A DNA stretch of 64,000 nt from an uncultured Chlamydiae bacterium (GTDB taxonomy: Bacteria > Chlamydiota > Chlamydiia > Chlamydiales > JAJFMB01): NCBI GenBank assembly GCA_963696295.1, contig CAVOJR010000001.1, positions 2,336,001 through 2,400,000 of the forward strand, in the 5' to 3' direction. This document shows positions 55,964 through 64,000 of the stretch, piece by piece. The position numbers and the translations under genes were made by a program. How positions within the stretch are numbered: the first letter of the stretch is position 1; each line of letters starts with the position of its first letter. The notes below the pieces were generated by a model. The model saw nothing but the letters and a program-made list of their open reading frames with translations. It was not told the DNA's origin and made no database searches.

Positions 55964-56929
55964 ATGAGCAAAGCACTTCTCGCCCTAAGCGACGGCACTC
56001 TTTTCCATGGACGAAGCGGCGGCTGCCGTAAGACGGTTTCCGCCGAGATCGTTTTCAACACCTCCATGACCGGCTATCAGGAAATTTGCACCGATCCCTC
56101 CTATGCCGGCCAAATCGTCCTCTTTACCGCGAGCCATATAGGAAATACAGGCGTGAATAGGGAAGATTCGGAATCGGGGAAAGTCTGGGTAAAAGGGGTT
56201 ATCGTCCGCGAAATGTCAAAGACGAGCAGCAACTGGCGGAGCGAAAAGAGCTTTATCCAGTTCCTGGATGAGCATCAAGTGCCTTGGATCGAGGGGCTGG
56301 ACACGCGCAAACTGGCGAGGCATCTCAGAAAAAACGGGACGCAAAACGGCTGCCTGATGACGGGCGGCGACGCGAAGATTTTGCTCTACGATTTTGGGGT
56401 GAAATCAAGCCTCTTAAACGCGCTTGGCTGCGGCGTACATGTGGTCCCAAAAAATTTTCCGGCAGCCGAAGCGCTTGCTCTCAATCCCGACGGGATCATT
56501 CTCTCCAACGGACCGGGAGATCCGGCTGCGATAAACCTGGAAGAAATAAGAACGCTGGTCTTTAGCGGGGTGCCGGTTTTGGGCATTTGCCTCGGATGCC
56601 AGCTGATCGCCCTTGCCGCCGGCGGGAGCACCAGAAAGCTTAAATTCGGGCATCATGGCGCCAATCATCCGGTTTGCGATCTCAAAAATAACAAAGTCTA
56701 CATCACCAGCCAAAACCACAATTTTGTCGTCGACGAAACAACGCTTCCGCCTGAATTTGAAGTGACCCATCTCTCTTTAATCGATGGTTCCGTGCAGGGG
56801 ATCAGAGCCAAGAACTATCCGGTAATGGGCTTTCAGGGGCATCCCGAAGGGGCTCCGGGGCCGCAGGATATGCCCCTGTTTCAAGAATTTCTGGAAGAGG
56901 TCGGCCATGCCCTTAGACTGCTCCATTAA
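55964..56929 (+). CDS. carA: Carbamoyl-phosphate synthase small subunit, shortened
   Basis: [30 protein letters not shown] (catalytic Cys), SQNH, QGHPE; interdomain segment missing. Confidence 0.95.
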
Positions 56930-59642
56930 AAAGGTGCTGGTGATCGGCGCCGGACCGATCGTGATCGGGCAAGCCTGCGAGTTTGACTATGCCGGCACAC
57001 AGGCCTGCAAAGCTTTACGGGAGGAGGGGTGCAAAATGATCCTCCTCAACTCCAATCCCGCCACCATCATGACCGACAGCGCCGACGCGGTTTACATCGA
57101 TCCCATCACACCCCAAATGGTCGAAAACATCATCCGGCGCGAACGCCCCGACGCCCTTTTGCCCACCATGGGAGGGCAGACGGCTTTAAACTGCGCTAGA
57201 GAGTCGGCTTCTATTTTGGAAAAATATGGAGTCCGTTTGATCGGCCTGACGCTCGAGACCCTGGAGAAGGCAGAAAACAGATCCATATTTCAAGCGGAAA
57301 TGGAGAAAATCGGGTTAGAGGTGCCAAAATCCTATTCGGCGCATGAGGCAGAGTTTCCGGTGATTGTCCGCCGCTCCTTCACTTTGGGCGGGCAGGGAGG
57401 GGGCGTCGCGCATGACTTCGAGGAGCTGGAGCGACTCTGTCAAGGAGGGGAACTTCTGATTGAAGAATCGCTGATAGGGTGGAAGGAATTCGAACTCGAA
57501 GTCATAAGAGACCGGAAGGGAAACTGCATTGTCGTTTGCGGCATAGAAAATATCGATCCCATGGGGATTCACACGGGTGATTCCCTGACTGTCGCACCGA
57601 TCCAGACCCTGACCGATAAAGAGTATCAGCTGATGAGAAAAAAGGCTTTTCAAATCCTGGAAGCGATCGGCATGACCGGGGGATGCAATGTCCAGTTCGC
57701 CGTCGACCCCAAAACAGGCAGAATGCTCGTCATTGAAGTGAACCCGCGGGTTTCCAGGTCATCGGCCCTCGCTTCCAAGGCCACCGGCTATCCGATCGCC
57801 AAAATCGCCGCCAAGCTCGCCCTGGGATACCATCTGGATGAATTATACCTAAACAACTTGATGAGTTGGGAATTGGGCAAGGAGGTTCCTTCAATTTTTT
57901 TTCCGGAGCGAGTGACCATTGCCGGTAGGCAAGGCACGAGTGAGGACGAAAAATTGAAGGTAAAACCGACGAAGACCAAAACCAACTCTTCAAGTTGTTT
58001 GGGTATAAGTTACGGAACAATGCCCGCCTTTTTCGAACCGGTCATCGATTATGTGGCAGTGAAGATTCCCCGCTTTAATTTTGAGAAGTTCCCCGAGGCG
58101 GACCGCACCCTCACCACCCATATGAAATCGGTCGGCGAAGCGATGGGCATCGGCAGCACCTTTAAAGAAGCGCTGAATAAAGCCATTTCCAGTCTGGATG
58201 CCCCATGGCATCCCAGGGGTTCTTACGATCCCTGGTTTACGGCGCAAATCGACGAACTGATGGCGGAAGAAGAAGCTGTCAAATTGCTCGAAACAATTGA
58301 CCTTTACCGTCTGAAACGGATGGGCTTTTCCGATGCGAGGCTGGCCGCGCTTTTAAAGTGCGGTGAGGAGCAAATCGCGGAAAGGCGAAAGGAACTTGGC
58401 CTCTATCCCGTCTATAAACGGATCGACAGCTGCAGCGGCGAGTTTCAAAATGAGATAGCCTGCCTCTATTCGACCTACGAAGAGGAGTGTGAAAGCGCGC
58501 CCACCGGAAAGCCAAAAATTCTGGTCTTGGGCAGCGGCCCCAACAGAATCGGGCAGGGAATAGAATTTGATTATTGCTGCGTCCATGCCATCAAGGCCAT
58601 CCGGGAGATGGGGTATGAGTCGATCCTGATCAACTGCAATCCCGAGACGGTCTCCACCGATTACGATACTGCAGACCGCCTCTATTTTGAGCCCCTGACT
58701 TTAGAGCATGTGCGCGAAGTGATCCGCATTGAGAAGCCCCTGAGAACCCTCATTTCATTTGGGGGACAGACCCCCTTGAACATCGGCAGGCATTTAGGTC
58801 TTACCCCCCCTTGCATAGACCTGGCCGAGGACAGAGAGAAATTCCGCCTTTTTGCCGCGAAAATCGGGCTGAAGCAGCCGCAAAACGCCGTTTTTTCAAC
58901 ACCTGCAGAGGCCTCCCAAATGGCCAAAATAATCGGGTTTCCCCTGATACTCAGGCCCTCGTACGTCATTGGCGGCAGCGGCATGCAAATCATCCGGAAT
59001 GAAAAGGAGCTTGAGGCGCAAGGCCCGTTGGCAGCTCCCGTTCTGATGGAGGCGTTTTTGGAAGGGGCTATGGAAGTCGAGGTGGACGCCATCAGCGACG
59101 GCAAAGAGGTGTTTATCTGCGGCATTGTCGAGCAGGTGGAGCCGGCTGGAATACACTCCGGGGATTCCATGAGCTTCCTCTCCCCTTATAAACTGAGTAA
59201 ACAGTTTCAGGAGGCCCTGGTGGAGCAAACGAGAAGGATCGCCCTTTCCCTTCAGGTGGTGGGCTTATTGAATGTCCAATTCGCCATTCACAACGGCGAG
59301 ATATTCGTCCTGGAAGTGAACCCGAGGGCTTCCAGAACCATTCCGTTGCTATCCAAGACAACCGGTCTGCCCCTTGTGCAAATGGCCACGAAATGCCTCC
59401 TGGGCCTCCCGTTGGAAAGCGGCATAGCCGAGCCGAAATTTTTGGGATTAAAGCTGCCGGTTTTTCCATTTTCAAGGCTGCATATTGAAGAAAAGCTGGG
59501 GCCGCAAATGAAATCTACGGGCGAGGTTTTATGCACGGGCCGGACGTTTGAAGAATTGTTTGCCAAGGCAAGGCTATACGCATTGCAGGATAAACATCTA
59601 TTTACAAAGGATTTAGAGTCGAAACTCTCACCAAATCGTTAA
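56907..59642 (+). CDS. carB: Carbamoyl-phosphate synthase large subunit, shortened, lacking the MGS/allosteric domain, with a 54-aa in-frame insertion
   Basis: [64 protein letters not shown]; ends shortly after. Confidence 0.95.
57846..58005. mobile_element. MITE / palindromic element, copy 2 (160 bp), in-frame within carB, flanked by TA
   Basis: TIRs TACCTAAACAACTTGATGAGTTGG / CCAACTCTTCAAGTTGTTTGGGTA; TA at 57844-45 and 58006-07; opposite orientation to copy 1. Confidence 0.9.
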
Positions 59643-59706
59643 GTAATGGTATTGCCTATAAAGAAAACTTTTAGTAAATTGTGGCTCTTTTGGAGACAGT
59701 GATTTT

Positions 59707-63488: not shown

Positions 63489-63924
63489 TATATTAGGCGG
63501 GCACTCCTTTTTTCAGGAGCTGTCTAAAGAGCATTTGGAATTTATTGCCGGCTGCGGGATGAATGTGGTCTTTGAGGAACAGCAGGTGATCGCGAAACCG
63601 GGAGACCCTGCGGATGAATTCTATTTGATCCGGCACGGGCAGGCGGCCTTGATTTTGGACAATCATAAACCATTTATTTATCAGACGATTGGCGAAAATG
63701 AAATCCTCGGCCTCTCCTGGCTGATCCCTCCCTACCGCTGGACAGTCACGGCAAAGGCTTTGCAAACGGTTAGAGCGATCGCGATCGACGGGGCCTGTCT
63801 TCGAAAAAAGTGTGAAGAGGATCCTCTCCTCGGATATAAATTAATGAAACATCTCGTGCAGGTTCTGGTCAGCCGCGAAGATGCGGCCAGACTCCATCTG
63901 ATCGATGTCTACGGGACAAGATAA
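63472..63924 (+). CDS. Stand-alone cyclic-nucleotide-binding domain protein of the hydrogenase operon
   Basis: GDPADEFYLIRHG, ILGLSWLIPPYRW, CLRKKCEEDP. Confidence 0.88.
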   Translation: MKKIVDILGGHSFFQELSKEHLEFIAGCGMNVVFEEQQVIAKPGDPADEFYLIRHGQAALILDNHKPFIYQTIGENEILGLSWLIPPYRWTVTAKALQTVRAIAIDGACLRKKCEEDPLLGYKLMKHLVQVLVSREDAARLHLIDVYGTR

Positions 63925-64000
63925 TGCTGTTTTATCCAATTGAGCATATCGAGCAGGAGTCTACGGACGCTTTTACGCTCCATCTGAAGGGGGGCATGCC
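63924..64000 (+). CDS. Probable hydrogenase gamma (FAD/NAD(P)-binding) subunit, 3'-truncated by the window
   Basis: TAATG overlap; MLFYPIEHIEQESTDAFTLHL resembles HydG N-termini; expected gene order. Confidence 0.6.
   Translation, partial: MLFYPIEHIEQESTDAFTLHLKGGM

Follow-up and report, generated by a model that had tools for sequence, protein, structure and literature searches.

A carbamoyl-phosphate synthetase without an allosteric domain as the probable carbamoyl-phosphate supply for [NiFe]-hydrogenase maturation in a chlamydial genome

A compact carAB pair near a hydrogenase operon

In a 64,000-nucleotide stretch of DNA from an uncultured Chlamydiae bacterium (hereafter the window; G000:C1:2336001-2400000), we analyzed the gene pair carAB, encoding a carbamoyl-phosphate synthetase (CPS), together with the nickel permease and [NiFe]-hydrogenase genes that follow it. 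The source genome, G000, comprises 3.43 Mb in two contigs (C1 and C2) and is 97% complete. The features around carAB, in window coordinates unless marked otherwise, were as follows.

50828..55949, plus strand: phosphoketolase, DUF302 and P-type H+-ATPase genes, upstream of carA
55964..56929, plus strand: carA, glutaminase subunit, 321 aa (TIGR01368, above cut-off)
56907..59642, plus strand: carB, synthetase subunit, 911 aa (TIGR01369, above cut-off)
57844..58007, unstranded: palindromic element of 164 bp (TA + 160 bp + TA) resembling a MITE (miniature inverted-repeat transposable element), in frame in carB
59707..60699, plus strand: hoxN, HoxN/NixA-family nickel permease gene (TIGR00802, above cut-off)
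60758..61882, minus strand: BBP7 beta-barrel porin gene (PF07585), between hoxN and the hydrogenase operon
62375..63488, plus strand: hydB, beta subunit of the hydrogenase (HydB/AsrA-like), interrupted near 62573 by a frameshift of 1 bp
63460..63924, plus strand: cyclic-nucleotide-binding protein gene of the hydrogenase operon (PF00027), its position kept in relatives
63924..64000, plus strand: start of the gamma subunit gene, which continues past the window
G000:C1:2399924-2408051: rest of the operon including gamma, with the delta and alpha subunits, a protease, hypA, hypF, hypC, hypD and hypE

The carA and carB reading frames were both open, with no interruption, and hoxN started 64 bp past the carB stop, as the initial annotation had it. 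That annotation also placed the hydrogenase genes after hoxN, which was correct, but they did not follow directly, as the minus-strand porin gene and about 490 bp intervened. A broken remnant (window 61886-62227, minus strand) with a putative 2Fe-2S ferredoxin-like motif lay in the space left between the porin and hydrogenase genes. Upstream, only 14 bp separated the phosphoketolase/ATPase gene block from carA, and from this spacing the phosphoketolase, DUF302 and ATPase genes probably share an operon with carAB-hoxN. A promoter scan gave 5 sites versus 10.6 expected, and a plasmid search over 67 records found no close relative, every one being below 60% identity.

The machinery that would use carbamoyl phosphate (CP) was encoded where it had been expected: hypF and hypE were found downstream, with hypD, hypC and hypA, after the hydrogenase. 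HypF, HypE, HypD and HypC all scored above the NCBIfam cut-offs and had intact motifs, including the C-terminal PRIC of HypE, and the L1 and L2 CxxC motifs of the hydrogenase large subunit were also intact (RICGIC and DPCISC). HypA was short and below its cut-off. The hydrogenase, which we call group 3b-type, had its best matches among models of sulfhydrogenase subunits, with scores under the archaeal cut-offs. The split of hydB is probably due to an assembly error, the likelier cause since frameshifts were also flagged in the genes that we take, by recognition from sequence, to be valS (window 29865-32714), thrS and rpoD; these indicate that the assembly contains indel errors. Of 81 genes compared with chlamydial homologues, 9 in all carried such a flag, with at least one flag being a gene boundary, and the rpoD and thrS sites lie at G000:C1:1371264-1372941 and 1418070-1419952. 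Directly past the hyp genes we observed a second F-type ATPase operon (G000:C1:2409402-2415772; L001:13402-19772), whose order, with gene names assigned by recognition, we presume to be N-ATPase-like.

CarB and CarA have lost segments in frame and kept their catalytic residues

The allosteric domain of E. coli CarB comprises residues 933-1073 (PMC6245113). The alignment of G000 CarB (1121 bits against TIGR01369, cut-off 1027) to the E. coli protein ran to residue 934, with the stop 20 residues beyond, so that the whole MGS-like domain was absent, as first reported. We considered whether this truncation was a frameshift artefact and rejected it. PF02142 (MGS) had no match anywhere in G000, the same search being positive in 13 of 14 controls, and this absence, together with the 64-bp carB-hoxN gap, implies that the domain was deleted rather than frameshifted. 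The junction was also bridged by a 318-nt contig (1 difference) that covers both the stop of carB and the start of hoxN; it belongs to run X2, which may be the source sample, and the X2 pieces listed extend over this junction and not over the frameshift in hydB, the deletion in CarA or the junctions of the MITE.

The in-frame deletions noted initially in the oligomerisation region were also real: E. coli residues 406-456 were reduced to 5 residues in CarB, and in a 40-row alignment this was the domain of the largest of 13 deletions, all in frame and together covering 82 columns. The oligomerisation and lid deletions recurred in the homologues P0009, P0015, P0011 and P0028. In the alignments of both CarA and CarB to E. 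coli, the catalytic motifs proved intact and in frame, as claimed. Kept in CarB were the ATP-grasp ligands of the first half (R129, R169, H243, Q285, E299, N301 and R303) and of the second half (R675, R715, E761, H788, Q829, E841, N843 and R845). The predicted model of CarB (mean predicted local confidence, pLDDT, 81.6) had a template-modeling (TM) score of 0.89 to E. coli CarB, with a disordered insert. The terminal branch of CarB was ordinary (0.2; median 0.23-0.24). The nonsynonymous rate dN was 0.19-0.24 and the synonymous rate dS was saturated or nearly so; recent decay would be invisible to a saturated dS. Truncations of the whole allosteric domain reportedly cost more activity than deletions inside it. 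In E. coli CarB, such inner deletions left 34-43% of kcat/KM and abolished regulation (PMC6941894).

CarA (394 bits against TIGR01368, cut-off 307) lacked, as also noted before, one internal segment, which the alignment identified as E. coli residues 138-193, the inter-domain linker, gone but for 2 residues; the deletion keeps the reading frame, and the linker loss in the homologue P0144 was nearly identical. Cys269 and His353, named as glutaminase residues in E. coli CarA (PMC6245113), were kept, the GICLG and GHPE motifs aligned to E. coli, and none of 76 near-invariant columns was changed. A second carA of the same type, frameshifted and truncated and with 73% identity, was observed at G000:C2:38193-38601 (L069:4193-4601); contig C2 is 135 kb long, with lower GC and no carB.

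A recent palindromic insertion inside carB

Overlooked in the initial annotation, the palindromic element in carB had the marks of a MITE family: it begins and ends with TA, has terminal inverted repeats, occurs in multiple copies and holds no transposase. It added a net 162 bp, i.e., 54 codons, in a CarB loop at E. coli residues 337-338, a loop that is deleted in other homologues; in the predicted model, residues 317-369 of this region had a pLDDT below 50. Six further full-length copies with 94-98% identity were present in G000 (e.g., G000:C1:1687592-1687755 and 2212470-2212633), the copy in carB being 98% identical to another, which indicates that the insertion is recent. Terminal-repeat sites numbered 64, and full-length family members occurred in two of 60 other chlamydial genomes (G402 and G031). 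The folded hairpin had an energy of -85.5 kcal/mol (z = -13). As three of the six frames of the element are open, its in-frame position is no proof of selection; one copy was in frame within a 552-aa open reading frame (ORF) and others overlapped ORF starts. The element had no match in Rfam, and no evident transposase was seen, as judged by eye, among the ORF starts near nine unpaired MITE ends. Its ends may resemble ERIC. Rickettsia palindromic elements and ERIC-type MITEs are likewise short palindromic repeats with TA-flanked termini, and some such repeats fuse in frame inside genes (PMC3184786).

carAB is the only carbamoyl-phosphate source found in the genome

Apart from the broken carA on C2, the carAB pair at 55964-59642 was the sole CPS of G000; a second carAB, for which the initial annotation proposed to look, was not present genome-wide, and no other CP source was found. 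We also searched for consumers. No pyr or arg genes lay near carAB, as stated initially, yet pyrB and pyrD were present elsewhere in the genome, as orphans:

G000:C1:1592507-1593469: pyrB
G000:C1:430448-431515: pyrD

The single PF00185 match in G000 was this PyrB, which scored above the TIGR00670 cut-off, and PyrD shared 43-44% identity with the pyr-operon PyrD of relatives. Thus, of the genes that would divert CP, argF was missing as anticipated and an intact pyrB was not. A full pyr pathway, one of the findings that would have told against a hydrogenase role, was likewise absent, the pathway being incomplete with only pyrB and pyrD: pyrC, pyrE and pyrF were not found in G000, nor were argF, ArgG, carbamate kinase (arcC) or NodU-type enzymes. 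By eye, the N-termini of PyrB and PyrD had hydrophobic, signal-peptide-like extensions that were absent in the pyr-operon relatives, and the two may possibly be exported enzymes. Five of six phosphoribosyltransferase loci were scanned and comprised apt, two upp, prs and one without assignment, the two upp genes indicating uracil salvage.

A second CPS type recurs beside chlamydial hydrogenase operons

CarB was matched in 123 of 400 scored genomes of the phylum and HypF in 16 of 401. The genomes with hypF were enriched in CarB (14/16 versus 109/384 others; p = 2.6e-6), with the reservation that kin are not independent. A Fisher table of 6/8 versus 9/284, in which most CarBs were sorted by identity band alone, was not relied on. 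Two types of CarB could be distinguished. The common one (~38% identity) keeps MGS and is mostly found in carAB-pyrBCDEF operons; it was the type used by 8 of the 16 hypF genomes, each with one CPS, PF00185 in 8/8 and PyrF in 7/8. In one of these genomes, G280, the pyr-type CPS lay ~11 kb from hydB, by chance position.

Among the other eight hypF genomes, six had the second, foreign CPS type, in five of them beside the hydrogenase operon (G000, G088, G137, G160 and G279) and in G180 on another contig. No CPS was found in G316, whose hypF is broken. We then turned to a held-out set of five further genomes (73-91% complete), chosen by CarB type before looking: HypF was present in four, none of which had PF00185 or PF02543, and the fifth, G412, had a CarB with MGS kept, an adjacent argF and no HypF. 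Over both sets, the second type was beside the hydrogenase operon in seven chlamydial genomes. In G088, G445 and G446, carB runs straight into hydB, and in G137, G279 and G160 the CPS flanks the operon in other orientations; the hydrogenase-adjacent CarBs fell into at least two separate clades. Alternative consumers were scarce in these genomes, as PF00185, PF00215, PF02543 and arcC had no match in G088, G137, G160, G180 and G279, and PF00185 was found in none of the nine other hypF genomes carrying the second CPS type.

In the tree, the second CarB type grouped beside gammaproteobacterial CarB and far from the pyr type, which suggests that it was acquired by transfer. Some further arrangements of CPS genes were observed in the phylum. 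A full-length, gammaproteobacterial-like carAB was present at L041 (G235), a genome in which no CP consumer was found and whose second-type CarB keeps MGS. G202 (L042:14218-18198) encodes a 1326-aa CarB-ArgF fusion and G324 (L295:6227-10531) has a 1434-aa ORF that is an apparent CarA-CarB fusion; either could be an assembly artefact.

Loss of the MGS-like domain is recurrent and not specific to hydrogenase loci

PF02142 was found in none of the best 31 CarB homologues (849-1008 aa) and in all of the next 88 listed, and in 30 of the 31 best homologues CarB ended 25-78 residues past the STGE motif. MGS status was scored in those chlamydial CarBs of the second type whose ends could be read, which left out G372 and G446. 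MGS was absent in six hypF genomes (G000, G088, G160, G279, G432 and G445) and in 4/4 CarBs beside NodU-type carbamoyltransferases (G030, G085, G166 and G313), and it was kept in 4/4 beside argF. The proposal that MGS-less CarB co-locates with hyp genes thus held in part: the arrangement recurs beside the hydrogenase, but it also occurs at NodU loci and in Bacteroidota. MGS loss is neither required for linkage to hyp genes nor unique to it.

A single origin of the loss was rejected (approximately unbiased test on a quickly built 31-row LG+G4 tree, p = 0.0003), and parsimony gave two changes, a count that one loss and one regain also satisfy. G160 CarB was placed among MGS-bearing arg-type enzymes, and the clade of G000 CarB includes the NodU-linked G313 and G166. 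The MGS-less carAB pairs in NodU/CmcH-type carbamoyltransferase clusters lie at L036 (G313), L050 (G030), L049 (G085) and L045/L046 (G166); the cluster of G085 also holds tryptophanase-like and methyltransferase genes.

As controls, 160 carB loci among the matches listed were taken, of which 42 were dropped because the C-terminus was incomplete or unscored. No hyp or large-subunit gene was found in the fetched flanks of the remaining 118. Bacteroidota CarBs in this set (L117, L121-L124, L126, L128, L129, L131, L134 and L136-L138) resemble G000 CarB in a natural end ~30 residues after STGE, without MGS, but differ from it in forming a separate tree branch and in that the loci fetched contained neither carA nor hyp genes; they are presumably housekeeping enzymes.

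Weighing a role of carAB in hydrogenase maturation

CP is the source of both cyanide (CN) ligands of the NiFe site via HypF and HypE (PMC12134894, PMC6022934, PMC13260591), so the use of CP by HypF, on which the initial annotation built, is established in the literature. The CarAB of E. coli and Salmonella also feeds the hydrogenase CN ligands (PMC12134894). With E. coli CarAB (PDB 1JDB, 1BXR), the G000 enzyme shares the two subunits, the glutaminase Cys/His pair, the two ATP-grasp halves and ~49% identity. The E. coli enzyme provides for both the arginine and the pyrimidine pathway, under control via residues 933-1073 (PMC6245113), whereas the G000 CPS has no allosteric domain, is missing 46 oligomerisation-domain residues and the CarA linker, and has HypF as the main consumer found; these sequence features set it apart from a regulated CPS of the E. 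coli type.

We consider it probable, from gene content and linkage, that carAB was acquired horizontally and is a CP supply cassette for hydrogenase maturation. In the proposed mechanism, CarA would hydrolyse glutamine, CarB would convert bicarbonate and two ATP to CP, and HypF would carbamoylate HypE to give the two CN ligands for the NiFe site of the adjacent group 3b-type hydrogenase, with HoxN providing nickel. With neither the pyrimidine nor the arginine pathway complete in the host, control by UMP, IMP or ornithine would be useless to it; MGS, a portion of the oligomerisation domain and several stretches of the surface would have been shed, and the CPS would be controlled at the expression level instead. 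We infer that the G000 enzyme is active, unregulated and co-expressed with the hydrogenase. The initial proposal of a streamlined, unregulated CPS recruited for hydrogenase maturation therefore gains from the presence of hypAFCDE, the sole CPS and the linkage in relatives, and loses from pyrB and from the non-specificity of MGS loss.

Several observations weigh against this role. The opposite-strand porin gene parts carAB-hoxN from the hydrogenase in G000, and the intact pyrB, next to a pyrD in the same genome, is a possible second CP consumer. hypB was not found in G000, nor above cut-off in 5/5 relatives, and G325 has hypF with no CPS found (86% complete); the relatives compared are metagenome-assembled genomes of 73-97% completeness. 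MGS is kept in G180 and G448, and in G137 it lies behind a frameshift. Among the matches listed, 21 of the 118 ordinary control carB loci were MGS-less (13 of 14 named ones from Bacteroidota), and MGS loss alone is therefore no proof of dedication. As to the enzyme itself, CarB breaks 9 of 262 near-invariant columns, more than most of the 31 homologues (range 0-16). In the CarA model (predicted TM score, pTM, 0.65; 44-row alignment, no control fold), each domain folds on its own but their orientation is non-native relative to E. coli CarA (TM 0.55, root-mean-square deviation 19.5 Å), and if this mis-packing is real, the G000 enzyme might depend on free ammonia.

It is unlikely, in our judgment, that the cassette served HypF earlier in the lineage and that the G000 copy is now impaired or decaying, with the hydrogenase island on its way out. 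Such decay would fit the recent MITE insertion (98% identical to another copy), the CarA linker, which at 30 residues between motifs is the shortest of the 120 listed against a median of 81, the mis-packed CarA model, the frameshift in hydB and the broken same-type carA on C2, and a saturated dS is blind to recent decay. Yet none of the 13 deletions in CarB, nor the one in CarA, breaks the frame, P0144 shares nearly the same CarA deletion, and the insert occupies a loop deleted by other homologues, with the remainder of CarB folding as a CPS in the model. The frameshift flags in 9/81 genes, including those taken for valS, thrS and rpoD, point to assembly errors instead.

Two other explanations were considered. 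That it chiefly feeds the orphan PyrB, giving carbamoyl-aspartate for remnant pyrimidine steps in place of a lost pyr-type carAB, appears very improbable. In its favour are a pyrB above the TIGR00670 cut-off and a pyrD matching that of the relatives' pyr operons at 43-44%; against it, pyrC, pyrE and pyrF were not found in G000, PyrB and PyrD have signal-peptide-like extensions that relatives lack (by eye), and PF00185 was matched in 0/9 of the other hypF genomes with the second CPS type. Alternatively, carAB could be carried by a mobile island of low-oxygen/acid genes (phosphoketolase, H+-ATPase) or derive from a NodU-type biosynthetic cluster, its proximity to hyp being incidental. In G000, carAB does abut the phosphoketolase-ATPase genes and not the hydrogenase, its CarB clade holds the NodU-linked G313 and G166, and the 135-kb contig C2 bears a fragment of carA. 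However, carB directly precedes hydB in G088, G445 and G446 and the CPS flanks the operon in G137, G279 and G160, the search of G000 for NodU-type genes gave none, and HypF requires CP, for which no alternative source was found; we give this explanation hardly any weight.

Relation to known systems and implications

Type 3b hydrogenases have been reported in three chlamydial genomes (PMC8242063); in the main-text passages of that paper seen here, carbamoyl appears only in the context of the arginine deiminase pathway, with nothing on CP supply or carAB. A preprint on a Legionellales symbiont, in the part available, ties CP to arginine fermentation only (10.64898/2026.04.11.717937). Thermococcus kodakarensis resembles G000 in needing CP for hydrogenase maturation without the usual CPS context, but it differs in that its ArcE/ArcB route draws on arginine breakdown, is shared with pyrimidine synthesis and involves no cluster-linked CPS (PMC13260591). 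Our literature search, in which subscription journals were thinly covered, turned up no paper on a hyp-linked CPS or an MGS-less bacterial CarB. The chemistry is known, and the arrangement is new.

The gene neighborhoods suggest that chlamydiae lacking pyr and arg pathways have placed next to their consumer, HypF or a NodU-type enzyme, a portable CPS that is often without regulation. Tentatively, and with slightly less than even confidence, we propose that the phylum has mobile, single-purpose CPS cassettes beside HypF or NodU/CmcH-type enzymes, which repeatedly shed MGS; that a CPS is an unrecognised accessory of hydrogenase clusters where the host lacks pyr and arg synthesis; and that the G000 copy, having neither MGS nor the linker of CarA and carrying a MITE insert of 54 residues, ranks with the smallest two-subunit CPS enzymes that work.

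The 31 MGS-less homologues, several of which share the oligomerisation and lid deletions, form a natural deletion series for the parts needed in catalysis and ammonia channelling, and MGS-less carAB points to four unexplored chlamydial NodU-type clusters. A feedback-free CPS could aid heterologous hydrogenase production or the synthesis of carbamoylated products. For the chlamydiae themselves, a carAB cassette would explain how [NiFe]-hydrogenase is matured in bacteria that live inside cells and obtain their pyrimidines and arginine by scavenging, and it predicts that carAB travels with the hyp genes where the host has no CPS of its own.

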